Notes: generated by a model from the sequence alone, not told the origin. DNA of 64,000 bases from Actinomycetota bacterium (GCA_014360685.1 JACIXB010000023.1:9825-73824); one strand, 5' to 3'; shown: positions 12,882 to 38,125, counted from the stretch's first letter. Numbers and translations: made by a program.

Positions 12882-13751
12882 GTGCCCACCGATCCCTGGG
12901 CGGGATGGCTGGATGGGGTAGAGAGGGAGGTTTCCCGGGATAGGCGGGCGGCGCTTCTGCGGAACCAGGTCCGGGACCGGGTGTTGTCGCAGGCTGGATT
13001 GAGGCCCGGTGCGGTGGCGGTGGACCTGGGATGCGGCCTGGGGTTTCTTTCCCTGGAGGCCGCGCGGTTGGTGGGGCCGGAGGGCAGGGTTTACGCCGTG
13101 GACTCGGACCGGGAAGCCTTGGGCAGGCTGAGCGTAAGGGCGGGCGAGGCCGGCTTGGCTCACGTGATCCCGGTTCACGCGGACCTTTGCAAGCTTCCGT
13201 TGCCCGCGGGGGAGGCGGACGCGGTGGTGGCCAGGTCGGTCTTATCCTATGTGGAGGAACGCGGGAAAGCCCTCCGGGAGTGCTTTCGGATCCTCCGACC
13301 CGGAGGAAGGCTTTCCATCTGCGAACCCCTGCTGGCCGAGGAGGAGCTGTGGGTGGACTGGGATCTCCAGCTTCCCCTTTGGGAGAAGGCCGTGGCCATC
13401 CTGAGGTCTGAGCATCCGGCCTATTCCTTCCGTGGTCCCGACCTGGTACGGGAAGTCCGGGAGACCGGGTTCAGGGAGGCGGACTTTTTCGTATGGTATG
13501 CGGACGTGACGCGTCCCTTCATTGACGCCCGGGAAGTGAAAAGGGAGTTGGAGGGCGCTCTTCCGGGCCGGCTCTCCATCCTGAAAACATTGCGGGCCGG
13601 TGGGATGAGCGAGGAGGAGATAGACCTGCTGGCGCGGCGGTGGGCCGAGGAATCGTGGCGTTTCTCCTATCGCGACATCCTCCCTTGTTGCTTCGTATGG
13701 GGCAGGAAAGGCGAAGAGGGGGAAAAGCGCCCTGAAGGAACCGCCGGGTGA
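12882..13751 (+). CDS. Class I SAM-dependent methyltransferase
   Basis: AVDLGCGLGFLSLEAA..VYAVDSD..ILRPGGRL. GTG start. Confidence 0.75.
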   Translation: MPTDPWAGWLDGVEREVSRDRRAALLRNQVRDRVLSQAGLRPGAVAVDLGCGLGFLSLEAARLVGPEGRVYAVDSDREALGRLSVRAGEAGLAHVIPVHADLCKLPLPAGEADAVVARSVLSYVEERGKALRECFRILRPGGRLSICEPLLAEEELWVDWDLQLPLWEKAVAILRSEHPAYSFRGPDLVREVRETGFREADFFVWYADVTRPFIDAREVKRELEGALPGRLSILKTLRAGGMSEEEIDLLARRWAEESWRFSYRDILPCCFVWGRKGEEGEKRPEGTAG

Positions 13752-16895: not shown

Positions 16896-18398
16896 TCATC
16901 CCAGGAGGTTAGCCACGTACAGGGCGCTTCCCGCCGCCTGCTCCGTTCCCACGCCCCGAGCTCCGGCGTCGGTTCCCACCAGCCACAGGCCCTCGACCGG
17001 GGTCCGGGGCGCCGGCTTGTGCACCCCGGTCTGTCCCACGCACTGGGCCAGGCCGATGCATTCGCCGGTGGGCTTGCCGGTGATGGAAGCGGTGTGGGCG
17101 ATGTGGGTGCGCATCTTCCACTGGACGTGAGATGCCATGTTGGGGAATATTTCCATGAGCCTCTCTTCCGCACGGTCCAGTATGCGCTCGCACCATTCCA
17201 CGTTCTCCCGGTTGACCTCGATGGGCCCGGGCACCCCCATGATCACCAGTTGCTTGCCCGGAGGAGCGGCGTAGGGATCCCACTCCGAGGGCAGGGGAGT
17301 GAAGAGGAAGGGGTCCTCCGGAACGCCGCCTCTCTCCAGATAGTCGAACATGTGATCGGGATCCAGGTTGGGGATGTTGAAGAAACTGGGGGCGGGAAGG
17401 TCGATCACCCGGCGGTCGAGGCCGAACTTTACGGTGATGAATGAATAGGAGTACTTCAGGCCCTTGACGTAGGCCACGTAATCCTCCGGGAAGTTCTCTT
17501 CCCCGGCCATCTCCACCGTTCGCTTTATGCCGGCGTTGGAGATCACCAGGTCGGCGTCGATCTCCTCGCCGTCCGCGGTGACCACCCCGCGAGCCCTGCC
17601 TTCCCTCACCACGATATTCTTCACCTCGCAGTTCAGGCGCAGCTCACCCCCGTCGCGCAGGAAGGCGCGCAGGAAGGAGCCCGGGATCTCGCGGGAGCCG
17701 CCCCGGGGAACGCCGAGGGTCTTCTTTTGGAATATATTGGTAACACACCATAAAAACTCGCCCGCGCTGACCTGGTGGTAGGGGACCACGGTAAGGAGCA
17801 TGGCAAGGGCGGCCATGCCCTGCAGGACCGTGCGGTCGTCGGTGATGCGGTGCAGGAACTCCTGCAGGCTGATCTCGTCAAGCTCCACGAGGTAGGAGGG
17901 GTTAAGGCGGGCGATCTTCGCCGCCGCGAGAAGGGATTCCAGGAAGGTGTTCCTCTTCGAGGCGCGGTAGACCTCGTTCTGAAGGGCGGTTGCGCCTGGG
18001 CTTCCGTTTTCCCGGCGCAGCAGCCTGTCCCGCAGCATCTTGATCTGCGAAGCGGCGTTGCTCAAGGCCATGCGGGGGTCGAAGGGGCTCTGGTAGAGGT
18101 TGACGCGGTATTTGCCGCCCACCAGGAGGTGCTCGCTGGGCTGGGCGGTCAGCCATTCCAGGTCGCCGCGCACCCGGCGGTTGATGTCCCCGTGCTGTCC
18201 GGAAGCCCCCATGGAGAACATGTGCACGCCGGAATCCACCAGGAAACCATCCCTCTCGAAGGACCAGCACTTCCCGCCGTAGAAACCATTTTTTTCCAGC
18301 AGGGTCACCCGGTGTCCCCTGGCCTGCAGGAGGGCGGCCACGCCCGCTCCTCCCACTCCCGATCCTATGACCAGTATCCTTTTCCCGCCTACAGCCAT
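16896..18398 (-). CDS. Phytoene-desaturase-family (CrtI-like) NAD(P)/FAD-dependent oxidoreductase
   Basis: KRILVIGSGVGGAGVAALLQARGHRVTLLEKNGFYGGK dinucleotide fold. About 500 aa. ATG at 18398 is preceded by gggaggtg. Confidence 0.75.
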   Translation of the reverse strand: MAVGGKRILVIGSGVGGAGVAALLQARGHRVTLLEKNGFYGGKCWSFERDGFLVDSGVHMFSMGASGQHGDINRRVRGDLEWLTAQPSEHLLVGGKYRVNLYQSPFDPRMALSNAASQIKMLRDRLLRRENGSPGATALQNEVYRASKRNTFLESLLAAAKIARLNPSYLVELDEISLQEFLHRITDDRTVLQGMAALAMLLTVVPYHQVSAGEFLWCVTNIFQKKTLGVPRGGSREIPGSFLRAFLRDGGELRLNCEVKNIVVREGRARGVVTADGEEIDADLVISNAGIKRTVEMAGEENFPEDYVAYVKGLKYSYSFITVKFGLDRRVIDLPAPSFFNIPNLDPDHMFDYLERGGVPEDPFLFTPLPSEWDPYAAPPGKQLVIMGVPGPIEVNRENVEWCERILDRAEERLMEIFPNMASHVQWKMRTHIAHTASITGKPTGECIGLAQCVGQTGVHKPAPRTPVEGLWLVGTDAGARGVGTEQAAGSALYVANLLG

Positions 18399-18626
18399 CC
18401 GGTCACCTCCCTTTGCCCGTGCGGGTCTTCCCGCTTGATACACTCCTGCCCGACGTAACGGTCGTCTGGATCCGTCAAGAAAACGGTTCCGTCACCCCGG
18501 CGCGCGTTACCTGCCTCTCCCGGCTGGCTCGCGTCCATTTCTCCTCTCCTTCCCCCGGTATTCACCCCTCCCTTCCGCCGTGCCGTAAAGCCCTGCCCCG
18601 CGTCGACAACGGGAAGGGGACCCTGG

Positions 18627-19685
18627 TCACGGAAAGAGGTTCCGGTACCCCGGCATGTACTCCACCAGTATCCTTTGGGCCGATTTTTTCCTGTCCAAAC
18701 GATGGAAGACCGTCCGGAACCCGATCACGTTCAAGGAAACCGGCACCAGCTCCTTCAGGCGCGCCGCGCAGTAAGCCGGGTAATAAGGGCTGACGCACCT
18801 GCGGAATTCCCTCCAGGCCCTCTCCCGGTCCTCCACGGCCAGGGCGGCTATCTTTCCGGACACCAGGGCGCCGTGCAGGCCGAAGAAGGCAAAGGGGTCC
18901 ATGGCCCCCGCCAGGGTGCCGGCCAGTATGGCCCTCCCGGCGAAGAGGCGCGGCGTGCGGATGGAGGCTGCCGGCACCGGGAAGGTAAAGCCGTTCCAAC
19001 GCGGGATCTCCAACCCCTCGAAGCGGGCTACCTGTTCGGCGAAACGGTCGCGGTCCCGGAGGGATATGGGACGGCGACGGTTGAAGAGGTGCACGTAGAG
19101 TATGCCCCGGAAAGCGGCTACGTACCCGTAATCGCTGGTGTAGGTGTCGTGGTACATGTGCACGAAGTTGAGCTCGGGATCGCAGGTGCCTCGGTAGGTG
19201 AAGTGGTGGGATGTAAGGTAGGGTACTCCGAAGGCGTCGAATCCCTCGAAGTGGAGGCCGGTGGCCACGATGCAATGGGGGTAAAAGTCCCAGAGGTCCT
19301 CGGGGGAGAGCACCGGCGAGGAGAACCGGAATTCCACGCCCGCTTCCCGGGCCAGCCGGTAGAGGTGGCTGTCCAGGCTGGTCTCCCGGGGCCCCCTTTC
19401 GAAGAACCAGGCCCGGATGAGGCGGGGATCGAAGGCGTACGCCTTGCCCCCGGCGATCTCCCGCATCTCCTGGATGGGCTCCACTCCGGGCGAGATGTCC
19501 ACGCCAAGGTAAGCGCACAACTCCTCCAGGTTGAGCGGGCTGCCCTGGCAGGAAGGGTGGTAAAGGGGGGAACCCCCCACTCGTTCCTCCCTCTCCAAAA
19601 CCAGCACCTGGTGGCCCCTTCGGGCCAAGGTGATGGCGGCCACCAGCCCCGCAAGCCCGGCCCCCGCTATCTTCACTTCGGCCAT
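18627..19685 (-). CDS. GGR-like FAD-dependent oxidoreductase, paralogue P0 of the 25257..28682 array
   Basis: VKIAGAGLAGLVAAITLARRGHQVLVLE..VGG, ERGPRETSLDSHLYRLAREAGVEFRF, and RLFAGRAILAGTLAGAMDPFAFFGLHGALVSGKIAALAVED. Confidence 0.75.
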   Translation of the reverse strand: MAEVKIAGAGLAGLVAAITLARRGHQVLVLEREERVGGSPLYHPSCQGSPLNLEELCAYLGVDISPGVEPIQEMREIAGGKAYAFDPRLIRAWFFERGPRETSLDSHLYRLAREAGVEFRFSSPVLSPEDLWDFYPHCIVATGLHFEGFDAFGVPYLTSHHFTYRGTCDPELNFVHMYHDTYTSDYGYVAAFRGILYVHLFNRRRPISLRDRDRFAEQVARFEGLEIPRWNGFTFPVPAASIRTPRLFAGRAILAGTLAGAMDPFAFFGLHGALVSGKIAALAVEDRERAWREFRRCVSPYYPAYCAARLKELVPVSLNVIGFRTVFHRLDRKKSAQRILVEYMPGYRNLFP

Positions 19686-20091: not shown

Positions 20092-20121
20092 TTGACAATC
20101 CCTTCCGCGTGTACCTATAAT
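20092..20121 (+). promoter_or_regulatory. Near-consensus sigma-70 promoter (TTGACA-18-TATAAT)
   Basis: ttgaca at 20092..20097 and tataat at 20116..20121, inside a locally AT-rich island upstream of the 20351 operon. Confidence 0.7.
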
Positions 20122-20350: not shown

Positions 20351-21751
20351 ATGGCGGTGGATACCGTTCCGGGGGAGATCGGGGATATAGTGGGCCCGGA
20401 AAACGTCAGTCGCGAACCATCCGCGGTCAAAAGGTATTTTCAGGAACCGGTGGGGGAGGTGCGGCTGACCCTGGTGCGGCCGGGCGACGAGTATGAACTG
20501 AGCGATTTGATGGCCGTAGCCGGCCGGGCCGGGATGCCCGTCTATTCCGTGCGAAGGGAGAAGATGGAGGGGCCTCCACCACGGGGGGAAGGCCTGCTCA
20601 TCGACCTCTCGCGCCTTGACGGGATAAAGGAGATAGACCGGCGCAATCTCATGGGGCATATATATGCGGGGGTGACCTACGAACGCCTGCAGGAGGAATG
20701 CCTGAAAAAGGACTGCAGGTTGCTGTTGCCTGCCGCTGCCGAGTCGCGTTCCGTGTTGCGTTCCTACCTGGACCGGGATATCCTCAACGGCAACGCGGTG
20801 TACCGTTTTCCCAACCTTTCCATATTTCACGCCGTGCTCTCCGACGGCCGCATCTGGGTATCGGGATCGCAGCAGTTGACGGCCGAGGGGATAGCCGATT
20901 TCCGGGAGGACCAGGGGCCCCAGTTCTCCCTCTTTTTCGGAGGGAGCGAGGACATCTTCGGCATACCCTTCTACGGGATCGTTTACCTTTATCCCCTACG
21001 GGAAGAACGCCGCGTGCTCCTTTTCGGCTTCGACGCCCTGGAGCCGGCCCTGGAGCTGGCTTACAAGGTGAACCGTGAGGAGCACTGCTTCGAGTGCGTT
21101 ACCGCCAATTCCCGCTACCTCTCCGTGCTCCTGTCCGAGGATGTCGACGGTGCCGAGGACCTGCGCTCCAGGTTACCGGCATGGGTTACCGCCCTCAGCC
21201 TGGAACATCACGTGGAGCTGGTGGACCTGTGGGAAAAGTACGTCAGGGCGGACGCGGAAGCCCTTGGGGCGCGGGAGCTGGACGGTGACCTGGCGGCGGC
21301 CATGGACGCGCAATTCAAGAAGCCCTGGTACCTGTTCGACCGGGATTACCTTCGGGGTCGCACCGCTTTCATCAGGCATTACGACTTCAAGAGGCGAGCC
21401 CCCGCGCTGCTTTCCGGGCTCCGGGAACTGGCCTCCGGCAAGGGATACCCGGCAGAGGAGATCGGCCAGGCCCTGGTCCCCGTGTACTTCGGCGGTTCCT
21501 TCTATTGCGAGACCGACCTCTACTTCCGCCCCTTGGACGAGGAGGATAAAGCCCGGGTGGAGGAGACAGTCCGCGAGGGCTACCGCTACCTGCTGGGCGA
21601 GTCGAGCTTCATAGACCGTCCCCGGGGAGAGGTGGCGGAAATGGTCTTTGCCGCGGCCGACCCAGGTTACCTCAAGGTCATGAGGATCTTCAAGAACATC
21701 GTGGACCCGGCGGGGATCATGAACCCCGGACAGCTCCTCAAGGGGGTGTGA
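20351..21751 (+). CDS. FAD-linked-oxidase-like protein with a degenerate FAD motif (GlcE-like partner subunit)
   Basis: PCMH-type fold pattern (GLLIDLSRLDGIKEIDRRNLMGHIYAGVTYERLQEE), but no GGG[TH]S loop. C-terminal IFKNIVDPAGIMNPGQL is typical of the family. Confidence 0.6.
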   Translation: MAVDTVPGEIGDIVGPENVSREPSAVKRYFQEPVGEVRLTLVRPGDEYELSDLMAVAGRAGMPVYSVRREKMEGPPPRGEGLLIDLSRLDGIKEIDRRNLMGHIYAGVTYERLQEECLKKDCRLLLPAAAESRSVLRSYLDRDILNGNAVYRFPNLSIFHAVLSDGRIWVSGSQQLTAEGIADFREDQGPQFSLFFGGSEDIFGIPFYGIVYLYPLREERRVLLFGFDALEPALELAYKVNREEHCFECVTANSRYLSVLLSEDVDGAEDLRSRLPAWVTALSLEHHVELVDLWEKYVRADAEALGARELDGDLAAAMDAQFKKPWYLFDRDYLRGRTAFIRHYDFKRRAPALLSGLRELASGKGYPAEEIGQALVPVYFGGSFYCETDLYFRPLDEEDKARVEETVREGYRYLLGESSFIDRPRGEVAEMVFAAADPGYLKVMRIFKNIVDPAGIMNPGQLLKGV

Positions 21752-21754
21752 GGG

Positions 21755-22975
21755 ATGAAAAAGCGCGTCACCGCTCCCCGGGAGGTCCTGCACGAGCTCC
21801 AGCAGGACTACTTCATCTGCACCAAATGCAAGATCTGCCAGGCGGTTCATGTCCAGTTCTGCACCGACTCGCGCTTCTGGCGCAACTGCCCGTCCGGGAC
21901 CCGCTTCCGCTGGGATGCCTACTACGCCTCGGGGAAGATGGAGATCGCCCGAGGGCTGCACATCCACGAGATCAAGCCCTCCGATTCCCTCCGCCACATC
22001 CTCTACACCTGCATGCTGTGCTCCTCCTGCCAGGAGCAGTGTTACGAGGTCAAGCAGCTTCACCCCACCCGGGTCTTCGAGCTCATGCGGGAGAAGGCGG
22101 TGCGCGAGGGCTGGGGTCCCATGCCGGAGCACGAGCCGCTACGCGAGAGCCTGGAGAAGAACGACAACCCCTTCGGGGTGGAGGCGAAGAAGAGGGGGGA
22201 ATGGGCCAAGGGCCTGGACCTGAAGCACCTTCCCGAGGAAAAAGCGGAGGTCCTCTTCTACGCCGGGGACGCCTATTCCTCCGACCCGGCCCTCTTCCCC
22301 GCCGTGCGCGCCGCGGCCCGCGTCCTGCAACTGGGAGGATTGGACCTCGGCATTCTGGGCGCCGAGGAGAAAAGCGACGGCGCGCTAATGCTCCTCCTCG
22401 GGGATCGCGATTTCTTCGAGACCTTCGCCTTCGACAACCTGGAGACCTTCAACTCCCTGGGGATGAAGACGATCGTCACCCCCGACGCCCACGCCGCATG
22501 GGTCTTCAAAGAGGAGTACTCCAGGGAGCTGGACCCGGAGGTCAAGGTGAGGCACATCAGCGAGGTCCTGGACCGCATGGTCCGCAAGGGAGACCTGAAG
22601 CCGCGCGAGGAGGTGTCCCTGAAGGCCGTCTACCACGATCCCTGCAAGCTGGGAAGGCGATTCGACATTTACGAGCCCCCGCGCCGCGTGCTCCGGGCCA
22701 TTCCGGGCCTGGAACTCCTGGAGTTCCCGAGGGCCGCTTTCAACTCCCTGTGCTGCGGGGGAGGCGGCGGGGTGCCCTACGCCTTCCCGGACTACGCCCT
22801 GTGGACGGCCAAGGAAAGGCTCTACGAGGCCGAATGGACGGGAGCGGAGGCCGTGGTGACCAGTTGCCCCTACTGCCTCCAGATGTTCCGCAAGGCGGTT
22901 GAGGCCACCGGCAGTTCACTGAAGATCTACGACCTGGCCCAACCGCTGCTCATGTCGTTGGGAGAGGAGGTGTAG
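21755..22975 (+). CDS. (Fe-S)-binding protein with two CCG domains (GlcF/HdrD-like)
   Basis: CTKCKICQAV and CMLCSSCQEQC cluster motifs, then HDPCKLGR and CCGGGGG (CCG domains). Confidence 0.8.
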   Translation: MKKRVTAPREVLHELQQDYFICTKCKICQAVHVQFCTDSRFWRNCPSGTRFRWDAYYASGKMEIARGLHIHEIKPSDSLRHILYTCMLCSSCQEQCYEVKQLHPTRVFELMREKAVREGWGPMPEHEPLRESLEKNDNPFGVEAKKRGEWAKGLDLKHLPEEKAEVLFYAGDAYSSDPALFPAVRAAARVLQLGGLDLGILGAEEKSDGALMLLLGDRDFFETFAFDNLETFNSLGMKTIVTPDAHAAWVFKEEYSRELDPEVKVRHISEVLDRMVRKGDLKPREEVSLKAVYHDPCKLGRRFDIYEPPRRVLRAIPGLELLEFPRAAFNSLCCGGGGGVPYAFPDYALWTAKERLYEAEWTGAEAVVTSCPYCLQMFRKAVEATGSSLKIYDLAQPLLMSLGEEV

Positions 22976-22979
22976 GGAG

Positions 22980-24623
22980 ATGTGGATACGGGATGTGGCC
23001 AAGGACATCAAGGAACGCCGCATATCCGGGATAATATTCCAGCACGAGGCCGAGCCGTTGCACAACCGTCCTCAGGACCTGGCCCGGGCCAAGGAGATGC
23101 TGGTCGAAGCGTTGGGCGAGGAGTGGGTCACCGACGACCCGGTGATCCTCATCGGTTACTCCCGCGACCAGGCGCCTTTACCCGCCCAGTACCCCCACCT
23201 GGTGGTCATGCCCGAGACCACTGAGGAGGTGGCGGAGGTCTACCGCATCGCCAACCAGTGCCGGGTGGACGTGATCCCCATGGGTACCGGCCTCACCACC
23301 ATGGCCCTGCACATACCCCTTTACGGAGGCATAATCATGGACCTCCGGCGCATGGATAAGATACTGGAAGTGGACGGGGAGAACATGTACATGGTCATCC
23401 AGCCGGGGGTCAACTACCTGGCCGCCCAGGTGGAGGCCCAAAAGGTGAAATGCCGGGTGCTCAACCCCTCCACGGCGGCCACCGCGGGGGTGATCTCCAA
23501 CCATGCCTTCTGCAACATCAACACCCTGGCCTCCAAGTACGGTTTCGGCATAGACAACATAATCGACATGACCATGGTCCTGCCCGACGGGACCATTTTG
23601 AAGACGGGGCCGGCCGCCTACGGGGCGGTTAAAGCCCACGTGCCGGGGCCGGGGCCGGACATGGCCTCCCTCTTCCGCTATGCTTTCGGCACCCTGGGAA
23701 CGGTCACGGAGATGACCCTGCGGCTGTACCCGGAGCCGGAGCACATTTACCAGATATTCCCTGCCTACGAGAAGGACGACCTCAAGTGCGTCATCGACGT
23801 CCTCTACAAGGTGGCCAACGAGAACCTGACCCTGGAGCTGGCCCACATGCAGAACTCCTTCTTCGGCATCTTCGTGGGGGCCACCAATGCCCAGGCCAGC
23901 GCCATCGCCGGGACCTTCCCCCGCAACAACCTGTTCACCATTTTCTCCGGTTCCACCCCGGAGGAGGCGCGGCTCAAGGCGGAGATCATCCAGCGCGAGA
24001 TCCTGAAGATCGACCCCGAATGGGAATTTTTGCCTCCGGAGGCGGTGGAGGACCTCACGTCCGATCTGCGCAGCGTGAACCTGGACCGCTGGCAGAAGTA
24101 CTTCAACGTCACCGTACGGGTGATGAGGGTGCGCGGTTCGTTCCTCATCGGGGCCCTCATCGGTCACCTGGATAACTTCCTGGAGGCGGAGCGCAGCATG
24201 CGCGTCGCCACCAGCGACCAGGCCGGCCACACCGAGGACAACCTGCCGCCGGACGACGCTTCCACCTATCTCCAGCCCTACCACATGGGGCGTTCCGCCT
24301 ACATGGAGTACGACGTCTATTCCAACCAGGGGGATAAGGACGACAACATGCGCATGTTCATGACCTACATGCGCGCCATGTTCACGGGCATTTTGGGGCA
24401 TGGGTTGGTCCTGGCCTGCGGGGCGATACCCTTGACCAAGGGAATGCCCGTGCCCTTACCGGAAGGCATGCCCCAGCTGGATGATCTCATGCCGCTGGTC
24501 ATGCCCAACAGCACGACCTTCACGGACACCTTCACCGCCTTCAAGATGGCCGTGGACCCCAACAACATATCCGCCCGAAGGTGGGATTACGAGACGGGCT
24601 TGTGCAAGAAACTGACCCTTTGA
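22980..24623 (+). CDS. FAD-linked oxidase family protein (GlcD-like, divergent)
   Basis: VVMPETTEEVAEVYRIANQCRVDVIPMGTGLTT..GIIMDLRRMDKILEVDGENMYMVIQPGVNY. 547 aa. Confidence 0.7.
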   Translation: MWIRDVAKDIKERRISGIIFQHEAEPLHNRPQDLARAKEMLVEALGEEWVTDDPVILIGYSRDQAPLPAQYPHLVVMPETTEEVAEVYRIANQCRVDVIPMGTGLTTMALHIPLYGGIIMDLRRMDKILEVDGENMYMVIQPGVNYLAAQVEAQKVKCRVLNPSTAATAGVISNHAFCNINTLASKYGFGIDNIIDMTMVLPDGTILKTGPAAYGAVKAHVPGPGPDMASLFRYAFGTLGTVTEMTLRLYPEPEHIYQIFPAYEKDDLKCVIDVLYKVANENLTLELAHMQNSFFGIFVGATNAQASAIAGTFPRNNLFTIFSGSTPEEARLKAEIIQREILKIDPEWEFLPPEAVEDLTSDLRSVNLDRWQKYFNVTVRVMRVRGSFLIGALIGHLDNFLEAERSMRVATSDQAGHTEDNLPPDDASTYLQPYHMGRSAYMEYDVYSNQGDKDDNMRMFMTYMRAMFTGILGHGLVLACGAIPLTKGMPVPLPEGMPQLDDLMPLVMPNSTTFTDTFTAFKMAVDPNNISARRWDYETGLCKKLTL

Positions 24624-24778
24624 CCGGCTTACGCGTGTAAGTGCCGGAGGTCGGCAAGGAGGGAGGTGATAGAGGAAGGAAGGCCGGTATGGAAAGGGAG
24701 GCGGCGCGGGCGGCGCGCGGACGGATCGCCCCGTCGCTTCTTCCGGCGAAGCGGAAAACGGCGATTCTGGGTTCGGGA

Positions 24779-24812
24779 GACCGCCCGCCGGAATCGGTCA
24801 CGGCGGGCGGTC
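24779..24812 (+). terminator. GC-rich perfect hairpin without a U-tract (possible I-shaped terminator)
   Basis: 12-bp perfect stem gaccgcccgccg / cggcgggcggtc with a 10-nt loop, in the 630-bp spacer after the GlcD-like gene. Confidence 0.3.
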
Positions 24813-25256: not shown

Positions 25257-26318
25257 TTGGCCGAGGTCATCGTGGTTGGCGCCGGGTTGGCAGGCCTGGT
25301 GGCGGCCATTAACTGCGCACGGTCCGGGCACCGGGTATGGGTCCTGGAGAAGGGGGAGTGGGTGGGGGGGGATCCGCGCATCAGGCCCACGGTGGATGTG
25401 ACTCCCATGGAGCCGGAGAAGCTGGGCCGCTTCATCGGCATCGACCTCGGCCCCCCTTTCGTGGTCCCCACGCGGGAATTCCTGGTGGACGTTTACGGGA
25501 AGAGATTCCTCTTCCCCGGCGAATATTTCAGCCTCCACTCCGTGGAGAGGGGGAGCCGCTCCACCTCCCTGGATTCATACCTCTACGAAAGGGCCCGGGA
25601 GGCCGGCGTGGAGTTCGAGTTCGGGGCGGAAGTCGGTTCCCGGGAGGAGTTCTCCCGCCTTCCGGCCGACACCATCGTGGCCACCGGGCTGGAGGCGGAA
25701 CCTTTCCTGGCCCTGGGGCGGCCCTACCTCGACGTCTTCGGATTCGTGGCCGCGGCTCCCCACCAGGGAGAGCCGCGTATCCTGGGGTACTTCGACCGCC
25801 ATACCAGATATTACCATTACTGCGCCAACCTCCACGGCACGGCATTCGCCCTGGCCTTCAATACCCGTCCCCTGCCGGGTTCCGCGTGCCGGGAATGGGC
25901 TGGTAGGCTCGAGGAGGAGGGTTTTCGGTTCCCTGAATGGCGGCCCCATAAGGGGGTGGTGGCCACCAGGGGGATCGCCGCCCCCACCCTGTTCGCCGGG
26001 AACAAGATACTGGCCGGCACCCTGGCCGGCATACAGGATCCGCTGTTCCTATTCGGGGTTCACGGTTCGCTTCTCTCGGGGAAGATAGCGGCCATGGCCA
26101 TCGAGGACAAGGAGCGCGCCTGGCGGCTTTTCCGCCGCTTCACCTCCCGTTATCCCTACATGTGGCTTTACAAGAGGATCTTCGACCTTCAGTCGCATTT
26201 TGCGCGCCGCCCGGGATTGAGGGCGGCCTTCGGGGCCCTGTCGAGGTTCCCGGACCTTTTTCGGCCTCTCCTGGGCGGAGCCCTGAAATCCGTCCCCGGT
26301 TTCGGGATGCTGGATTAG
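25257..26318 (+). CDS. GGR-like FAD-dependent oxidoreductase, paralogue P1
   Basis: VIVVGAGLAGLVAAINCARSGHRVWVLE..VGG, ERGSRSTSLDSYLYERAREAGVEFEF, and TLFAGNKILAGTLAGIQDPLFLFGVHGSLLSGKIAAMAIED. TTG start with gggagg upstream. Confidence 0.8.
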   Translation: MAEVIVVGAGLAGLVAAINCARSGHRVWVLEKGEWVGGDPRIRPTVDVTPMEPEKLGRFIGIDLGPPFVVPTREFLVDVYGKRFLFPGEYFSLHSVERGSRSTSLDSYLYERAREAGVEFEFGAEVGSREEFSRLPADTIVATGLEAEPFLALGRPYLDVFGFVAAAPHQGEPRILGYFDRHTRYYHYCANLHGTAFALAFNTRPLPGSACREWAGRLEEEGFRFPEWRPHKGVVATRGIAAPTLFAGNKILAGTLAGIQDPLFLFGVHGSLLSGKIAAMAIEDKERAWRLFRRFTSRYPYMWLYKRIFDLQSHFARRPGLRAAFGALSRFPDLFRPLLGGALKSVPGFGMLD

Positions 26319-26334
26319 GAAGGGAGATCTCGGG

Positions 26335-27459
26335 ATGGCGGCCAAGAGGGTGGTCATCGTCGGGGCCGGCTTGGCCGGCCTGTGCGCGGCCATAACCGCA
26401 CGCAAGCTGGGCTACGAGGTTCATTGCGTGGACCGTTTCCAGCGGGTAGGCGGAATGCCCGAAGCCCATCCCTTCGTGGATTCCACCCCCTTCGACCCGG
26501 TGCTCATGTCCCGTTTCCTCGGCGTACCGATAGGCGAGCCGCAGGTGGGCCCTTGCGAGAATTTCCACGTCTACGCCTTCGGAAAGCTGTACCGCCTCGA
26601 CCCTTCTTTCTCGCGCCTGCACAACGTGGAACGCGGGCCCAGGAGGTCGGCCATCGACCGCTATCTCCATGATTTGGCGCTGGACATGGGGGTGACCTTC
26701 GAGTGGGGAAACCCGGTACTCGGCCGCAAGGACCTGGCCCAGTTCCCGCCGAACACCATCGTGGCCACCGGGCCCTACCCGGAGGTCTTCGAGGCCCTGC
26801 GTATCCCGCACGAGACGGCTTACGGATACGTGATGAGCGGGGTCTACCGTCCCTGGGGGGAAAGGTCCTACGCAAGGCGGTGCGCCGTGTATTTCGACCG
26901 CTATACCCGCGACTATTGTTATCTCCCTGCCGCCAACGGCATCGTGGCCGGGCTGTTCTTCGCCCGCCGCCCGGTGGGCGAGCGGCAGCGTGCCTTGTGG
27001 GAAAGGCAGATCAGGGAAACCGAGGGCGTGGAGTTCAAGACCTGGAGGTTGGAAAGGGGCTTTTTCGCCTCTCGCTATCCATGCCAGCCCCGGCTTTTCG
27101 CCGGGGACAAGATACTGGCCGGCACCCTGGCCGGGGCCCAGGACCCGGGTACCTACTTCGGGTGCCACGGGGCAATGGTCTCGGGCAAGATAGCCGCCAT
27201 CGCGTTGGAGGACAAGGCCTTGGCTCAGGAGATGTTCGACCTCTGCAACCGGAGCTTCAACGCCATGTGGTTCCTGCGCCGGGTGGCCATCAACTACATG
27301 CCGGAATTCCTCCGCAAGTCCTTGCTCAGCACCGTCCTGGGATTCGTCGCCAAATGGGAGATCCTGGGCAGGATGCAGGGAAGGAGCCTGCAGCGGATGA
27401 TTCCCGGCTGCCTGCTCCTGTTGCATATGGATAAATATTCCAAGTATCTGAATATTTAA
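26335..27459 (+). CDS. GGR-like FAD-dependent oxidoreductase, paralogue P2
   Basis: VVIVGAGLAGLCAAITARKLGYEV, ERGPRRSAIDRYLHDLALDMGVTFEW, and RLFAGDKILAGTLAGAQDPGTYFGCHGAMVSGKIAAIALED. An unusual AT-rich segment encodes the C-terminal tail. Confidence 0.8.
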   Translation: MAAKRVVIVGAGLAGLCAAITARKLGYEVHCVDRFQRVGGMPEAHPFVDSTPFDPVLMSRFLGVPIGEPQVGPCENFHVYAFGKLYRLDPSFSRLHNVERGPRRSAIDRYLHDLALDMGVTFEWGNPVLGRKDLAQFPPNTIVATGPYPEVFEALRIPHETAYGYVMSGVYRPWGERSYARRCAVYFDRYTRDYCYLPAANGIVAGLFFARRPVGERQRALWERQIRETEGVEFKTWRLERGFFASRYPCQPRLFAGDKILAGTLAGAQDPGTYFGCHGAMVSGKIAAIALEDKALAQEMFDLCNRSFNAMWFLRRVAINYMPEFLRKSLLSTVLGFVAKWEILGRMQGRSLQRMIPGCLLLLHMDKYSKYLNI

Positions 27460-27584
27460 ATACCTGGTTTCCGGGGCACGAGGTCTTCGCGCCCGTCTCT
27501 CCGGGTGGACGCGAATGGCTCTCGTTCCGCCGGTGATAGGAATGAACATGCAAGTCTTGGTGTAGGCTTGAAGGGGGATGGAAG

Positions 27585-28682
27585 GTGAAAGACAAAGGAC
27601 CCATCTACGTGGTGGGGGCGGGACTCGCGGGGCTTACCGCGGCCATCAACCTGGCCCGGCAGGGCAGGGAGGTTGTGGTCCTGGAGAAGGGGAAACGGGT
27701 CGGCGGGCTGGCCGTCTATAACCCCTCCCCGCACGGTACCCCCATGGATGCCGAGGCCATGTCCGGATACACGGGCATAGACCTGCTTCCGGCCATGGTT
27801 CCCCTGAAGGAAGGTGTGATCTCCATATGGGGGAAGAGGTACCGACAAAAGTTTCCCCGCAACGTGCAGGCCTGGATGATCGAAAGAGGGCCGCGAAAAT
27901 CGTCCATGGACCATTACCTTTATCGACTGGCGTTGGAGGAAGGGGTACGCTTCGAGTTCGACCAGCCCGTGGCGAGCGACCGACAGATCAACGAGTTGCC
28001 CCGCAATTCCATCCTCGCCACCGGCCTGCACGTGGACGGCTTCGAAGCCGCCAACGTCCCTTACCAGATCCTGCACGGCTATTTCGCCAAGTGCCGGGTT
28101 CCCTGGAAAGAAGCCCGGGTGACCATGTACTTCGACGACTACACGCCGGATTACGCCTTCACCTGTTCGGTTAACGGTATAGCCTTCGCCCTCATCTTCA
28201 ACCGCTACCGCCCGGTTGCCAGGTGGGAGATGGAGAAGTTCGCCGAGCAGGCGGTGGTCGAAGACGGGTATCCCTTCAGGAGATTCCAGGTCCTGGAAGG
28301 AGGTGCGGCCCCGGTTCGCCGTTTCACCAACCCCCGGCTTTTCCAAGGGGACATGATACTGGCCGGCACGGTGGCCGGGATGATGGACCCTGTCCTCTTC
28401 TTCGGGATGCACGGCGCCTTCCTCTCCGGGAAGATAGCGGCGCGGGCGGTGAACGATCCCGCCGGAGCTTATGACGAGTTCCGCCGGTTGAACGTGACCT
28501 TTTACCCGCTGCTGGCCGCCAAGCGCCTATTGGATATAAGCCCCCGTGACCTGGCCATAAAATATCCGGCCCGCCTTGCCATGCGTCTCATGCCCCTTTT
28601 TGGCCCCCTGCTCATGCGCCAGGCCTTCAAGGTGAACGTGACCGGATACGGCCGGTTAAAGGGGTCAGGTCTTGAATTTTGA
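27585..28682 (+). CDS. GGR-like FAD-dependent oxidoreductase, paralogue P3. The last 5 codons and the stop lie inside the MITE-like element.
   Basis: IYVVGAGLAGLTAAINLARQGREVVVLE..VGG, ERGPRKSSMDHYLYRLALEEGVRFEF, and RLFQGDMILAGTVAGMMDPVLFFGMHGAFLSGKIAARAVND. Confidence 0.8.
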   Translation: MKDKGPIYVVGAGLAGLTAAINLARQGREVVVLEKGKRVGGLAVYNPSPHGTPMDAEAMSGYTGIDLLPAMVPLKEGVISIWGKRYRQKFPRNVQAWMIERGPRKSSMDHYLYRLALEEGVRFEFDQPVASDRQINELPRNSILATGLHVDGFEAANVPYQILHGYFAKCRVPWKEARVTMYFDDYTPDYAFTCSVNGIAFALIFNRYRPVARWEMEKFAEQAVVEDGYPFRRFQVLEGGAAPVRRFTNPRLFQGDMILAGTVAGMMDPVLFFGMHGAFLSGKIAARAVNDPAGAYDEFRRLNVTFYPLLAAKRLLDISPRDLAIKYPARLAMRLMPLFGPLLMRQAFKVNVTGYGRLKGSGLEF

Positions 28683-29742: not shown

Positions 29743-31236
29743 TCACTTAATACCGCACAGGTGGAGCGCCGATTCCAGGGCCTCGGAGCGGTGTGGCTGG
29801 GTGCGCGAGAACTCCAGGAGGCTCATCTTGCAGGCCTGCCCGGAACCTCCCCCATGGGTGGCGGAATGGAGGATGGATCCCAATCCCCAGGAGATGTTCT
29901 CTATCAGCCGGACCATGCGCAGGCGGTGTTCCGCGGGCACGTCGTCCACGCCCTTCAGGAACCGTTCCATCCAGTGGGAGATCTCCGGGTTCTTCATCTC
30001 CTTCTCCCCGGGGCAGCAGGACAGGATGCCGCCGGTGATATCCTCGGCCAGGCGTATGAGGTCGAAGACGGCCCGCGAGGCGTAATACTTCGTGTTGTTG
30101 GCCAGCACCGGGTCGGCCACGTAACCCGCTCCCGGGAGCTGGAAACCGCGCATGGCGGCGGCAAGCCCGCAGGAATACATGGTCTCGGAGATGGCTACCA
30201 TGTCCGCCAGCTTATCCTGCACGTGGGCCGACCTCTCCAGCCCGTTGTAGCGGGCCATGAGTTGGGTGGCGGCGATGAGAACGTCAGCCCATCCCGATTT
30301 GCATCCCCCGGTGGTGGGGCGATGGGAGGTGCCGAAGAGGTTCACCAGTTCCCCCAGGTACTCCACTTCCCCGCAGAGAAAGACCCTTTCCCAAGGCACG
30401 AAGACATCATCGAAGATCACGATGCATTCATGCACCCCGTAGTAAATATTTCCCAGGTCCATCTCCGCTCCTTCCTTCCTGCGGTCGTCCTGGGACTGCC
30501 GCACGGAGATGTGGACCAGACCGGGGGCATCGGCCGGCACGGCACAGGCCACGGCGTAGTCCTCGGCGCCGGCGCGGTGGGTGGTGCAGGGAAGGACCAG
30601 CTTTTCGTGGGAGAATGCGGCTCCCGTCTGGTGCAGCTTGGCCCCGCGGATCACGATTCCCTCCCGGTTCCTGTCCACGACCCTGAGGTACATGTCCGGG
30701 TCGGGTTGTTCCTGGGCGGGGATCTTCCTCCCTCCCTTGGGATCGGTTATGGCCGGGCAGGCCAGAAGATCGTTGCGCTGCATGTAGATTATCCATTCGC
30801 GCAAGCGCGAGTGGTAGGACGTCCCCTTCTCCAAATCGATCTTTCGGGTGATGTACAGCAGGGGGGCATAGGCGTTCTGGATGCAGCGGAAGGAACATAT
30901 CCCCAACCTGCGGTTCATGTAGCGCGTGATGTTCACCTTGGCCACCAGCTGGTCCACGCTCTGCGGGACGTGTTGGAAGAAGGAAACGGGCTCCCCGGTG
31001 AGATGGGATTCAACCGTCAGGCGGTCGGCGAGCTCCGGCTCGTGGACCATGTCGTAGGTGGCGGCCACGGCGTGGGCAGCCGCCCGCACCGCGGGGTGCT
31101 CCAGGGCGTTGTCCAGCCGCCTCCCGTCGATGTAGATGGGGATGGACATTTCCTCGATGCTCTTCAGGTATTCGGCCCCGGTCTTCAATTCCTCCTCCCT
31201 CCCAAGGTTTTCCTTCTTCTTGCTGACGGCGTGCAA
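29743..31236 (-). CDS. abfD: 4-hydroxybutyryl-CoA dehydratase / vinylacetyl-CoA isomerase-like protein (AbfD/HpaB family)
   Basis: ITDPKGGRK..DPDMYLRVVDRNREGIVIRGAKLHQTGA is conserved. The cluster-ligand pattern CSFRC (C-x3-C) plus HRPTTGGC (H-x6-C) matches the clostridial enzyme. The C-terminus ...GIK also matches. The start may be a TTG at 31188. Confidence 0.75.
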   Translation of the reverse strand: MHAVSKKKENLGREEELKTGAEYLKSIEEMSIPIYIDGRRLDNALEHPAVRAAAHAVAATYDMVHEPELADRLTVESHLTGEPVSFFQHVPQSVDQLVAKVNITRYMNRRLGICSFRCIQNAYAPLLYITRKIDLEKGTSYHSRLREWIIYMQRNDLLACPAITDPKGGRKIPAQEQPDPDMYLRVVDRNREGIVIRGAKLHQTGAAFSHEKLVLPCTTHRAGAEDYAVACAVPADAPGLVHISVRQSQDDRRKEGAEMDLGNIYYGVHECIVIFDDVFVPWERVFLCGEVEYLGELVNLFGTSHRPTTGGCKSGWADVLIAATQLMARYNGLERSAHVQDKLADMVAISETMYSCGLAAAMRGFQLPGAGYVADPVLANNTKYYASRAVFDLIRLAEDITGGILSCCPGEKEMKNPEISHWMERFLKGVDDVPAEHRLRMVRLIENISWGLGSILHSATHGGGSGQACKMSLLEFSRTQPHRSEALESALHLCGIK

Positions 31237-35485: not shown

Positions 35486-35573
35486 TCCTTAGATTAGGCA
35501 TCCCGCTCCGGAATTGGTGGTAAAATGTTCTCGGCCCGTTTCCGGCCGCCACCACGGCGAGGAAAGGAGCACC

Positions 35574-36707
35574 ATGGATGCGCGCATGACGGTCGAGGAA
35601 TGCCTGGAGATGTGGAGGAATCCCTACCCCCGCCTGGCCCGCATGCGGGAGGAAGGGGAAAGGCCGGTGGCCTTCTTCTGTTCCTATACCCCGGAGGAGA
35701 TACTCCACGCCGCCGGTTTTACGCCGGTGCGGCTCATGGGTGCCGTGCGCACCATAACCCATGCCGACGCTCACCTCCAAGCCTATTGCTGCTCCCTGGC
35801 CCGCACCGACCTGGACATGGCCCTGGCGGGAGAGCTTGATTTCCTGGAAGGAGCGGTTTTCGTGCAGACCTGCGATACCATGATGCGCCTCTCGGACATC
35901 TGGCGTCGCAACACCTCCTTTCCCTTCCACGGGGACCTGGTCTTACCCATCCGCATGGGCGAGGAGATCTCCCTCCCCTTCCTGGTGGAAGAGGTGCGCC
36001 GCTTCCGGGGAAGGGTGGAAGAGTACCTGGGGCGGAGCATCCGGGACGATGCCCTGGAAGAAAGCATCCACGTGTACAACCGCAACCGGCGGATGGCGGA
36101 CAGGCTTTATCTGCTGCGCCGGGAGAGGCCGGGAGCCCTGGACGGCCTTTCAGCCACCGCCTGCCTGGTTGCCGGTTTCTGGATGAGGCGCGAAAAGCAC
36201 AACGATCTTCTGCACCATATTTTGGAAGAAGCCGAGGCCGGGAAGGAGAAAGCCGCGGAGAAGCTGCCCCTGCTGGTCAGCGGGAGCGTCTGCGCCACCC
36301 CCGACCTTTACGAGCTTTTAGCCGAGCTGGATGCCGAGGTGGTTGACGACGACCTCTGTTGCGGTCACCGCTATTTCGACGCCTTTGCCGACGAGAACAT
36401 CTCACCGGAGGAGGCACTGGCCCGGCGCTTGTGGCAACGGGTCAACTGTCCGGCCAAACACCAGTGCCTGGAGGACCGGGCGGAGCGCCTCCTGAGGCAA
36501 GTGGGGGACAGCGGAGCGAAAGGTGTGGTGTTCTTCCTGCAATCCTTCTGCGAACCGCACCTCTTCGACATCCCCTACCTGAGGAACCGCCTGCGGGAAG
36601 AGCTTGGCATACCCTCTCTGGTTTTGGAGAGCGAGCTGCAATCCTTCTCCCGCGGGCAGCTCCGGACCAGGCTGCAGGCCTTCCTGGAGACCATCCGCGG
36701 GGTGTGA
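35574..36707 (+). CDS. 2-hydroxyacyl-CoA dehydratase / benzoyl-CoA reductase BcrC/BadD/HgdB-family subunit
   Basis: VAFFCSYTPEEILHAAGFTPVRLMG N-terminus and C-terminal VVFFLQSFCEPHLFD, typical of the HGD-D family. aaggag RBS. Confidence 0.75.
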   Translation: MDARMTVEECLEMWRNPYPRLARMREEGERPVAFFCSYTPEEILHAAGFTPVRLMGAVRTITHADAHLQAYCCSLARTDLDMALAGELDFLEGAVFVQTCDTMMRLSDIWRRNTSFPFHGDLVLPIRMGEEISLPFLVEEVRRFRGRVEEYLGRSIRDDALEESIHVYNRNRRMADRLYLLRRERPGALDGLSATACLVAGFWMRREKHNDLLHHILEEAEAGKEKAAEKLPLLVSGSVCATPDLYELLAELDAEVVDDDLCCGHRYFDAFADENISPEEALARRLWQRVNCPAKHQCLEDRAERLLRQVGDSGAKGVVFFLQSFCEPHLFDIPYLRNRLREELGIPSLVLESELQSFSRGQLRTRLQAFLETIRGV

Positions 36708-36889: not shown

Positions 36890-38125
36890 ATGAGCTCCGG
36901 CGAGAATCGCGACGAGGAGAGGGAAGCAAAGGAAAGGCGACGCATCAAGTCCGGGGAAGCCATGCGCGACCTGATGACCAAGTACTACATGGAGGCCAAG
37001 GCCGCCGAGGGGACGGACAAGCACATCGCCTGGATCACCAGCGGGGGGCCGGTGGAGCCGCTCATCGCCTTCGACGTCATCCCCGTGTACCCCGAGAACC
37101 ACGGCGCCATGTGCGGGGCCGCCCACATGAACGTGGAGCTCTGCGAGGTGGCGGAATCCCGCGGCTTCTCGCGGGACCTGTGTTCCTATGCCCGCGGAGA
37201 CATAGGGAGCGCCATCACCAAGGGCGGACCCATCGGAGGACTGCCACGGCCCACTTTCCTGGTGTGCTGCAACAACATCTGCAACACGGTGTTCAAATGG
37301 TACGAGGAGCTCGCGCGCTTCTTCGACGTCCCCCTGTTCATCTTCGATACCCCCTTCGTGAGGGGAGGACTGCCCTCCCATCACCTGGATTACACCCGCC
37401 GCCAGATGGAGGAATACATATCTTTTCTGGAAAGGATTACCAGCCGGGAATACGACGAGGCACACTTCGTGGAGGTGGCGGCCAAGTCCCTCTACGCCTC
37501 CGGCCTGTGGGCGGAGGTGCTGGCCTGCAACCAAGCCCGGCCGGCCCCCATGACCTGCTTCGACGCCTTCATCCTCATGGCCCCCATCGTCACCCTGCGC
37601 GGGACCCAGGAGGTGGTGGACTTCTACCAGGGCTTGCTCCAGGAGATGAGGGACCGCGTCGAGCAGGGCATCGGCATCCTTCCTTCCGAAAAGTATCGCC
37701 TGCTGTGGGACAACATCCCGGTGTGGTACGAGATGCGTAACCTGGGTCGGCTTTTCATGGAACTGGAAGCCTGCCTGGTAGCGGACACCTACACCAGCGC
37801 CTGGACCTTCCAGGAAGTGGACACCGAGGACCCGCTGGAGGCCATGGCCGCCATCTACACCGAGGTATACCTGAACATCAACCTGGAGCGCATGGCGGAC
37901 AAGATAGAGTCCCTGGCCCGCCGCTACGAGGTGGACGGCATGGTAATGCATTCCAACCGCAGCTGCAAGCCCTATTCACTGGGCCAGTACGACCTGGCCA
38001 AGGAGTTCACCCGGCGCACCGGAAAGCCGACCCTGATTATCGAGGCCGACCATACCGACTCGCGCTGGTACAACCGTGCCGAGGTGGAAGGGCGCATCAG
38101 GGACTTCGTGGAAAACCTCCTTTAA
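36890..38125 (+). CDS. 2-hydroxyacyl-CoA dehydratase-family subunit (HgdA/BcrB-like partner)
   Basis: HIAWITSGGPVEPLIAFDVIPVYPENHGAMCGA.., LCSYAR, and C-terminal DGMVMHSNRSCKPYSLGQYD. gaaggagg RBS. Confidence 0.75.
   Translation: MSSGENRDEEREAKERRRIKSGEAMRDLMTKYYMEAKAAEGTDKHIAWITSGGPVEPLIAFDVIPVYPENHGAMCGAAHMNVELCEVAESRGFSRDLCSYARGDIGSAITKGGPIGGLPRPTFLVCCNNICNTVFKWYEELARFFDVPLFIFDTPFVRGGLPSHHLDYTRRQMEEYISFLERITSREYDEAHFVEVAAKSLYASGLWAEVLACNQARPAPMTCFDAFILMAPIVTLRGTQEVVDFYQGLLQEMRDRVEQGIGILPSEKYRLLWDNIPVWYEMRNLGRLFMELEACLVADTYTSAWTFQEVDTEDPLEAMAAIYTEVYLNINLERMADKIESLARRYEVDGMVMHSNRSCKPYSLGQYDLAKEFTRRTGKPTLIIEADHTDSRWYNRAEVEGRIRDFVENLL

Follow-up and report, generated by a model that had tools for sequence, protein, structure and literature searches.

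Four flavoproteins with a geranylgeranyl-reductase-type fold in an actinobacterial gene cluster are putative polyprenyl-lipid reductases

What reaction is carried out by three consecutive, related flavoproteins encoded by an Actinomycetota bacterium (GCA_014360685.1, JACIXB010000023.1:9825-73824)? We analyzed a stretch of 64,000 nucleotides from this genome, referred to here as the window, in which the genes P1, P2, and P3 occupy positions 25257-28682 and a fourth relative, P0, lies apart from them on the opposite strand. Enzymes of the geranylgeranyl reductase (GGR) type set the saturation of isoprenoid lipids, quinones, chlorophylls, and some bacterial sterols, and for many GGRs the electron donors and the roles of 'extra' paralogues are still open questions (PMC10821996). 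We propose, with about equal weight for and against, that P1-P3 and P0 are putative flavin adenine dinucleotide (FAD)-dependent reductases that saturate C=C bonds of a polyprenyl lipid.

The window has a G+C content of 63%, and its real genes show a strong bias in G+C at third codon positions (GC3); all four P open reading frames (ORFs) have coding-type GC3 values of 0.78-0.84. P1 (25257-26318, plus strand, TTG start, 353 amino acids) belongs to the first of two clades described below, clade A, clusters with the leading copies of tandem arrays at other loci, and has intact GxGxxG, ATG, and LAGTLAG motifs. P2 (26335-27459, plus strand, ATG start, 374 amino acids) is the second clade A member and starts 16 nucleotides past the P1 stop, P3 (27585-28682, plus strand, GTG start, 365 amino acids) falls in clade B, and P0 (18627-19721, minus strand, ATG start, 364 amino acids) is of the B0 type within clade B and lies upstream of, and co-oriented with, a CrtI-like gene. 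The original prediction had recognized the P0 ORF and ended it at 19685 (18627..19685), which is an internal Met 12 codons downstream of the start assigned here. The motifs that it quoted (VGAGLAGLxAAI...VGG, ERGxRxxSxDxxL, ATG, and LFxGxxILAGT(L/V)AGxxDPxxxFGxHGxxxSGKIAA) are all present in the four-way protein alignment, in which the mean column identity is 58%. We found that pairwise BLASTP identity among the four proteins is 36-43% (E 1e-63 to 1e-86), while at the DNA level only stretches of 31-152 nucleotides align, mostly 70-80% identical, including one 31-nucleotide stretch that is 94% identical between P1 and P2; the alignable stretches are apparently the motif-coding parts. Since only short DNA stretches align and protein identity is 36-43%, the copies are old paralogues; assembly duplication, which had been thought unlikely because of their divergence, is ruled out, as is chance similarity.

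Profile searches of Pfam, NCBIfam, and PDB sequences matched the P proteins over their first ~40 residues only, which is the FAD Rossmann beta-alpha-beta motif, and placement in a characterized family by hidden Markov models was therefore rejected. The Pfam Rossmann models match residues ~4-45, and PF01494 (FAD_binding_3) aligns to residues ~2-42 only. TIGR02032, the model of the GGR superfamily, is the top NCBIfam match for three of the four proteins and stays below its cutoff of 158.8 bits for all of them (P1 35.7, P2 25.5, P3 51.8, P0 36.5), aligning to residues 9-133 of P3, and the FixC model NF007542 gives 22-25 bits against a cutoff of 610. The family is uncharacterized, as had been claimed: no Pfam or NCBIfam model covers it beyond the N-terminal Rossmann motif, and its only public name is 'NAD(P)/FAD-dependent oxidoreductase'. 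P3 was modeled with AlphaFold2 on 58 homologues, and the model has the GGR/PHBH fold (predicted local distance difference test (pLDDT) 94.9, predicted template modeling score (pTM) 0.93). Its first-ranked Foldseek match in the PDB is the Thermoplasma GGR-like protein Ta0516 (3oz2; E 1.3e-16, query TM-score (TMq) 0.65, 16% identity), and the Sulfolobus acidocaldarius GGR structures 3atq, 4opt, and 4opl follow at TMq 0.64-0.68, so the GGR/PHBH fold signature that had been read from the sequence reappears in the model. Judging by this model, placing the P proteins in the GGR/PHBH superfamily at the fold level is sound, and close membership of any characterized family is not supported.

The flavin motifs are partly those of GGRs. 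Across the 58 aligned sequences, G11-A-G13-L-A-G16 of the GxGxxG motif is invariant, and the C-terminal G..G....SGxxAA block is kept; we judge its ...SGKIAA part to be of the GGR type and not of the monooxygenase type. The C-terminal end of TIGR02032 matches the region of this block in the UbiA fusion proteins described below. The ERGxR...D block, which we take to be the equivalent of RxxFD in GGRs, has invariant R101/R104 and D109 with other spacing (R-x4-D), and the segment past strand beta-2 reads RVGGxxxxxPxxxxTP. The acidic residue of beta-2 is Glu in 53% of clade A sequences versus 100% of those in clade B. The idea that A-type copies are degenerate pseudoenzymes was rejected, as GxGxxG and the C-terminal flavin block are preserved in clade A as in clade B.

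A neighbor-joining tree of copies from 17 loci has two clades. P1 and P2 fall in clade A together with the copies that come first in tandem at other loci; clade B includes P3, the copies in second tandem position elsewhere, and a subclade of the P0 type. In this tree, the A/B split is older than the divergence of the sampled lineages, and the duplications are thus as old as had been supposed. A tandem triplication had also been proposed; the three consecutive paralogues are real, but they are not equivalent copies, the window carrying an A-A-B array and a distal B0. We scored array order in 28 metagenome loci (individual loci carry L numbers here) with at least 5 kb downstream of a GlcD-like gene, which also precedes P1 in the window. 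The order is AB in 12 loci and AAB in three, AAAB, AABAB, and a single A (L127) also occur, and 10 loci have no co-oriented P gene; every fully contained array runs A then B. The arrays of L009 and L001 expand to 6-10 copies. In L001 (258-kb contig ERZ25039527, 830-12209), ten tandem copies follow the GlcD-like gene and, by best window match, read P1, P2, P3, P2, P3, P2, P2, P3, P3, P3, which amounts to five A-type and five B-type copies. P2 orthologues mostly precede a P3-type gene in L001 and L009, and L001 also holds adjacent P2-P2 and P3-P3 copies. The short gaps between copies (3-61 nucleotides in L001) are consistent with co-transcription. The constant order of A before B suggests, as far as gene order can tell, a heteromer or two steps that must follow one another.

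The P family is small and narrowly distributed. In a profile search of 1.84 billion representative proteins, a threshold of E <= 1e-30 admits only 140 representatives, almost all of them from metagenome-assembled genomes (MAGs) of Actinomycetota from hot springs, peat, and sediment, with Candidatus (Ca.) Solincola and Ca. Geothermincola among the named ones; a threshold of E <= 1e-10 admits 617. The named members of a protein cluster 92% identical to P3 come from Ca. Solincola spp. and Actinomycetota MAGs, and the GlcD-like protein of the window is 93% identical to that of S. tengchongensis; by these sequence identities, the host is a Ca. Solincola-like anaerobe of hot springs. The Solincola lineage lives in hot springs and has the Wood-Ljungdahl pathway, Rnf, and hydrogenases. 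The window also encodes an aldehyde:ferredoxin oxidoreductase (AOR; 13883-15709, plus strand) and two proteins of the 2-hydroxyglutaryl-CoA dehydratase (HGD) D-component type (35514-36707 and 36890-38125, plus strand), a combination that we take to be typical of strict anaerobes. The anaerobic character of the host (Wood-Ljungdahl, Rnf, AOR, HGD-type enzymes) favors a reductase over an O2-dependent hydroxylase. Literature searches returned no report on the membrane or isoprenoid lipids of these Actinomycetota and, for a described cluster of this kind, general GGR papers only; the Ca. Solincola genome paper does not mention isoprenoids, carotenoids, or menaquinone. We found a larger sister family of uncharacterized archaeal proteins of ~352 amino acids (1604 matches; hhalign probability 99.3% against the P-family profile) in Bathyarchaeia, Methanobacterium, Theionarchaea, and Nanoarchaeota, with GEAAG in place of AGTLAG; L171/L172 (8001-10409) and L170 (8001-9056) are loci that carry it. 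It forms a tandem pair in Bathyarchaeia, and its gene context in Methanobacterium was uninformative.

A link to isoprenoids comes from protein fusions in a sister clade of the P family. Seven representatives of ~600-635 amino acids consist of an N-terminal UbiA prenyltransferase and a P-type flavoprotein domain, and in two representatives (945 and 1021 amino acids) a GT21/HpnI-like glycosyltransferase is joined to UbiA and the flavoprotein. The UbiA parts best match PRK12884, PRK12875, and chlorophyll synthase ChlG models, all below cutoff. Chlorophyll (ChlG/ChlP) and archaeal lipid (DGGGP synthase/GGR) biosynthesis both pair a prenyltransferase with a GGR. The 1021-residue fusion (L083, DATJGS010000037.1, 7856-13066) stands after 3beta-HSD/epimerase-family and KASIII-like genes, a context that points to a different lipid pathway; the label of this contig, Ca. 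Saccharimonadaceae, looks doubtful, as the contig is 321 kb long and carries secretin and CHAT genes.

The genes around the arrays also point to lipids. The cluster that recurs across uncultured anaerobic Actinomycetota has, on the minus strand, genes for a methyltransferase, a CrtI-like protein, and a B0-type P protein (PB0) and, on the divergent plus strand, genes for an SCP2 protein, GlcE-like, GlcF-like, and GlcD-like proteins, a single-transmembrane (TM) peptide of 45-59 amino acids, A-type and B-type P proteins (PA and PB), a CrtI-family protein, and a fusion protein of ~970 amino acids. Divergently oriented to the GlcE-like gene, the PB0-CrtI(-methyltransferase) unit is present in more than 20 loci. 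In the window, its CrtI/phytoene-desaturase-like FAD oxidoreductase (16896-18443, minus strand, 515 amino acids; PF01593) scores 116 bits with TIGR02734, below cutoff. Relatives have up to three CrtI-family proteins in the cluster, and the one encoded after PB passes the TIGR02734 cutoff (293.8 versus 238.1 bits). The ~970-residue fusion, which is absent from the window, joins an N-terminal CrtISO/CrtI-like domain to a C-terminal GltD-like NAD(P)H/iron-sulfur module (L085, 15009-17951; L087, 6787-9678); this arrangement suggests reductive chemistry, and the protein may be an NAD(P)H-driven polyene saturase. The SCP2 lipid-carrier-domain protein (12281-12715, plus strand, 144 amino acids) and the class I S-adenosylmethionine methyltransferase, which is ArsM/UbiE-like (12882-13751, plus strand, 289 amino acids), are members of the cluster that the AOR gene displaces from it in the window. 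SCP2 orthologues occur in 22 loci, directly upstream of the GlcE-like gene in L085, L089/L090, and classified metagenome loci, and in L089/L090 and many metagenome loci the PB0-CrtI unit is followed by a homologue of the methyltransferase. Three SCP2-domain proteins are encoded in the window (12281-12715, 46484-47062, and 52941-53480), which suggests extensive handling of hydrophobic substrates. The lipid or isoprenoid substrate that the original prediction had ventured as a hypothesis gains independent support from the UbiA fusions and the CrtI-family and SCP2 neighbors. Its suggestion that the P genes might co-occur with flavodoxin and DUF362 genes fared differently: these genes, like the HpaB-like gene (HpaB/4-hydroxybutyryl-CoA-dehydratase family; 29743-31236, minus strand) and TetR, accompany the P genes only in the closest relatives, one locus (L100) has flavodoxin without a P array, and all four were rejected as parts of the cluster.

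CrtI-family enzymes are classically desaturases, and the same neighbors could be read in the opposite direction, with the P enzymes running oxidatively as desaturases or dehydrogenases in the catabolism of saturated isoprenoid or other lipids (e.g., archaeal phytanyl chains), electrons leaving via the CCG iron-sulfur subunit, and SCP2 solubilizing the substrate. Copy expansion fits catabolism, as do the SCP2 and nearby SCP-x-type thiolase/DUF35 genes in some loci and the acyl-CoA ligase that the window encodes along with its three SCP2 proteins. We nevertheless consider this direction very improbable. Desaturating unactivated alkyl chains needs a high-potential acceptor, which is unlikely in a Wood-Ljungdahl/Rnf anaerobe, the fusion of a CrtI-like domain to an NAD(P)H-dependent GltD-like module points to reduction, and the characterized GGR-family enzymes that we found in the literature are all reductases.

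Upstream of P1 lies a trio of plus-strand genes for a divergent GlcE-like FAD_binding_4 subunit (20351-21751, 466 amino acids), a GlcF/TfrB-like iron-sulfur subunit with 4Fe-4S dicluster and CCG domains (21755-22975, 406 amino acids; PF13183 and PF02754; TfrB model E 1e-41, below cutoff), and a VAO/GlcD-type FAD_binding_4 flavoprotein (22980-24623, 547 amino acids). The trio has the domain-level architecture of GlcDEF (FAD_binding_4, Fer4 plus CCG, FAD_binding_4). The 547-residue flavoprotein does not reach the GlcD cutoffs (TIGR00387, 91.7 bits against 567.9; NF008408, 75 bits against 897), PF01565 is the only domain found in it, with no FAD-oxidase_C cap domain detected, and its PDB sequence matches are confined to the FAD domain. 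The top Foldseek matches of its model, which is of low to moderate confidence (pLDDT 67.5), are 9h40, 8s7n, EUGO, and 1dii (E 1e-22 to 1e-19, TMq ~0.6), and D-lactate dehydrogenases come just behind these VAO/PCMH types at E down to 1e-18. Because the pLDDT is only 67.5, the PCMH/VAO-like assignment is tentative. The association of the P genes with a GlcDEF-like oxidase set, as originally described, therefore stands, while the likeness of the 'GlcD-like' subunit to 4-alkylphenol oxidoreductases of the VAO/PCMH type is at least as great as its likeness to glycolate oxidase. We scanned metagenome contigs with a profile of the 547-residue flavoprotein and obtained 79 loci, 49 of which have at least 1.5 kb downstream; in 30 of these 49 informative loci, a P gene lies within 2 kb directly downstream of the GlcD-like gene. 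CrtI-like and B-type genes lie convergently downstream of it in L142 and L144. A subgroup of the 547-residue family with ~57% identity and an N-terminal extension to ~580 amino acids (L115, 4530-6269; L116, 9863-11602; L131, 1816-3534) has no P genes nearby, and its neighbors (HGD-D, an ADP-forming CoA ligase, an alpha/beta hydrolase, and an MFS transporter) were uninformative.

The likeness of the trio to substrate dehydrogenases (D-lactate dehydrogenase, GlcD, PCMH) raises the question of whether the P proteins act on isoprenoids at all. They might instead work in the cytoplasm as terminal reductases, or as electron-transfer flavoproteins of the FixC/ETF-QO kind, on non-isoprenoid compounds (for instance, unsaturated acids, aromatics, or humic-derived substrates), with the trio as the electron-supplying dehydrogenase and copy expansion as substrate diversification comparable to the reductase arrays of other anaerobes. 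FixC is among the top structural matches of P3, the host is an anaerobe, and arrays of 6-10 copies are what families of catabolic or respiratory reductases typically show. Against this, the window, L001, L085, and L089 contain no ETF or FixX genes, the FixC model falls far short of its cutoff, and the companions (SCP2, three CrtI-family proteins, and the UbiA fusions of the sister clade) are of the lipid/isoprenoid type. We therefore regard a non-isoprenoid role as unlikely.

The 4-alkylphenol oxidoreductases matched by the 547-residue flavoprotein model lead to a further possibility, a Ubi-like metabolon for a prenylated phenol or quinone. The P proteins would then be ring-modifying enzymes of the UbiH/I/F kind, SCP2 would take the UbiJ/UbiT role and the methyltransferase that of UbiE, and the PCMH/VAO-like trio would carry out O2-independent benzylic or ring oxidation of an alkylphenol. 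SCP2 proteins are part of the Escherichia coli Ubi complex, the UbiA fusions fit aromatic prenylation, the methyltransferases have weak UbiE/MenG/MpqE matches, and group-A monooxygenases (VioD, 3HB6H, KMO, and PHBH relatives) come near GGR in Foldseek. However, the DG and GDAAH motifs of the monooxygenases are absent, PF01494 matches little more than the Rossmann motif, the C-terminal motif is presumably of the GGR type, the methyltransferase matches are far below cutoffs and higher on ArsM-type models, and the flavoprotein model is of low confidence. Moreover, the hosts resemble strict anaerobes (Wood-Ljungdahl, Rnf), which makes four to ten O2-dependent hydroxylases unlikely. We find such a metabolon decidedly improbable.

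Several observations weigh against polyprenyl reduction itself. The GGR-defining features compared here come from PMC10821996 and PMC12004948. The active-site Cys, which is essential in SaGGR as Cys47 and conserved in archaeal GGRs and Bsr (PMC10821996, PMC12004948), has no equivalent in the P family, and no Cys is invariant or nearly so among the 58 aligned sequences; P3 has only Cys170 and Cys194, and P1 has Cys20, Cys189, and Cys211. The (P)xxYxWxFP strand is absent, its counterpart, placed by sequence order, being D-Y190-x-(F/Y)-x-x-x-x-N-G with an invariant Tyr and no Trp or Phe-Pro. LxGD is replaced by LAGT, with Thr in 89-96% of the sequences of both clades, and ADG by ATG, so that Thr stands for Asp in both flavin motifs; the replacement of GDAAG by AGT(L/V)AG, noted originally, holds in the alignments. 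The two Asp-to-Thr exchanges together with the loss of Cys suggest that flavin binding and proton delivery differ from those of canonical GGRs. Some true GGRs also lack the LxGD and RxxFD motifs (PMC10821996). In Foldseek, FixC (7koe_C, E 5e-14) and group-A monooxygenases (E 1e-16 to 1e-13) score nearly as well against the P3 model as GGR does. The UbiA fusions belong to a more distant subclade (170-217 bits versus >300 for the core family) whose function may differ, so that what they do can be carried over to the core family only by inference. Neither the window nor the conserved cluster has a gene for a polyprenyl synthase, UbiA, or phytoene synthase, the GlcDEF-like trio occurs without P genes in L100, single P genes occur without the trio in L002 and L087, and gene order is what the possible A/B heteromer is based on. 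L100 (OGCI01000383.1, 10001-12140) has a GlcD-like protein 83% identical to that of the window, its trio is followed directly by flavodoxin, and neither a P array nor a PB0/CrtI unit lies within 10 kb; the P flavoprotein genes seem to have been lost naturally.

Taken together, the GGR-type fold and C-terminal motif, the UbiA fusions, the three CrtI-family neighbors, one of them with an NAD(P)H/iron-sulfur module, SCP2, and the anaerobic host make saturation of polyprenyl C=C bonds the best supported function. Under this proposal, reduced FAD would give a hydride to a polyprenyl double bond, and the P reductases would act without the canonical GGR Cys and with Thr for the two flavin-motif Asp residues. 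They would work in a lipid-tailoring cluster made up of the SCP2 carrier, the VAO/GlcD-type flavoprotein pair with the CCG iron-sulfur subunit, the A/B paralogues, the CrtI-family oxidoreductases, and the methyltransferase, in which the flavoprotein/iron-sulfur trio may feed electrons to the reductases or act on the same lipid. A more far-reaching version is conceivable, and we think it quite unlikely: the A and B proteins would form an obligate heteromeric prenyl reductase wired to a membrane-associated VAO-type/CCG complex as a new route of electron input and, with the CrtI saturases and the methyltransferase, would yield fully or heavily saturated (archaeal-like or lycopane-like) isoprenoid lipids in anaerobic Actinomycetota, while the 'extra' GGR-type saturase long sought for non-phospholipid terpenoids would be the ~352-residue archaeal sister family, which has tandem pairs in Bathyarchaeia. 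If polyprenyl reduction is correct, the P family would represent a new mechanistic variant of prenyl reduction with a candidate electron-supply module, and its hosts would be unrecognized bacterial sources of saturated isoprenoid biomarkers. If one of the alternatives holds, a recurrent cluster of 8-12 genes of unknown function has still been annotated.

Other features of the window concern the surroundings of the cluster. The 634-bp spacer between the GlcD-like gene and P1 (24624-25256) has no convincing ORF and no Rfam match above noise. At this position, relatives encode the 45-59 amino acid single-TM peptide (L004, 7057-7191; L005, 2107-2238; L085, 8568-8747; L090, 4861-5040; also L086) with the conserved motif ...LDEGTKR...MPGRL.T, and the gene for it is absent from the window spacer. 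A short DNA block near 24755-24800 (GGAAAACGGCGATTCTGGGTTC...) is shared with L003, where it lies just upstream of P1. Upstream of the trio, a sigma-70 promoter-like site, TTGACA-18-TATAAT (20092-20121, plus strand), matches the consensus at 12/12 positions, a consensus match only; it lies 230 nucleotides upstream of the GlcE-like start, which would give a long 5' leader, in a genome of 63% G+C. Elsewhere, an RNase P class A RNA (RF00010) is found at full length at 60206-60585 on the plus strand (302.7 bits), and two overlapping minus-strand ORFs (43040-43996 and 43924-44658) match positions 385-471 and 2-206 of the Amidohydro_3 profile and may be a frameshifted or split gene.

How does the P family compare with known systems? 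Group-A monooxygenases (PHBH, UbiH/I/F, VioD, KMO) share its overall fold and size, and Ubi enzymes work with an SCP2 protein and the UbiE methyltransferase, but the P family has ATG and AGT(L/V)AG instead of DG and GDAAH, and its host is anaerobic. FixC/ETF-QO has the same GGR-like flavoprotein fold and is an electron-transfer partner of flavoproteins and iron-sulfur proteins in anaerobes, whereas the window, L001, L085, and L089 lack the ETF and FixX partner genes, and the P proteins score poorly with the FixC model. The upstream trio shares with GlcDEF its two FAD_binding_4 subunits, its dicluster/CCG iron-sulfur subunit, and a GlcE-F-D-like order, and with PCMH/VAO enzymes the 547-residue subunit length and the best structural matches of the low-confidence model (PCMH, eugenol oxidase, and vanillyl-alcohol dehydrogenases). 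It differs from GlcDEF in its GlcD model scores (75-92 bits versus cutoffs of 568-897) and in that no cap domain is recognized, and from both in that, to judge from gene order, it is co-transcribed with an SCP2 lipid carrier in relatives.

Closer parallels are found among GGRs. Archaeal GGRs (Ta0516, 3oz2; S. acidocaldarius, 3atq; TIGR02032) have the same three-domain FAD fold (TMq 0.65-0.68), a similar size, and the N-terminal GxGxxG, ERGxR...D, and C-terminal G..G....SGxxAA elements within the TIGR02032-aligned regions (for the C-terminal block, in the fusions), and relatives of the P family are likewise fused to or adjoin UbiA-type prenyltransferases. The P family differs from them in being only 13-17% identical, in lacking the conserved Cys, in having LAGT, ATG, and Tyr-Phe/Tyr for YxWxFP, and in occurring as A/B pairs downstream of a VAO-type/iron-sulfur complex and not beside ferredoxin. 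There are precedents for GGR paralogues that took on new isoprenoid substrates, among them the multiplicity of archaeal GGRs (PMC10821996). Specialized bacterial GGR paralogues each saturate one isoprenoid double bond and are encoded beside the genes of their pathway: Bsr of Myxococcota is a sterol C-24 reductase, a GGR paralogue with an isoprenoid substrate (PMC12004948), a BchP paralogue of Chlorobaculum forms 1,2-dihydrocarotenoid (PMC6166724), and the menaquinone reductases of Mycobacteriales are of the same kind. In its co-location with CrtI-family genes, the P cluster resembles the carotenoid case of Chlorobaculum. Bsr keeps YxWxFP and the active-site Cys, whereas the P family lacks both and is a small clade of its own, found almost exclusively in Actinomycetota MAGs. 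It is a distinct clade that current Pfam and NCBIfam models do not cover, set apart by its altered flavin motifs, the missing catalytic Cys, the A-then-B order, and its partnership with a flavoprotein/iron-sulfur complex, SCP2, and CrtI-family proteins. We class the P family as a variant inside the GGR superfamily; it is not a categorically new system, nor is it one more annotated enzyme of the ordinary kind.

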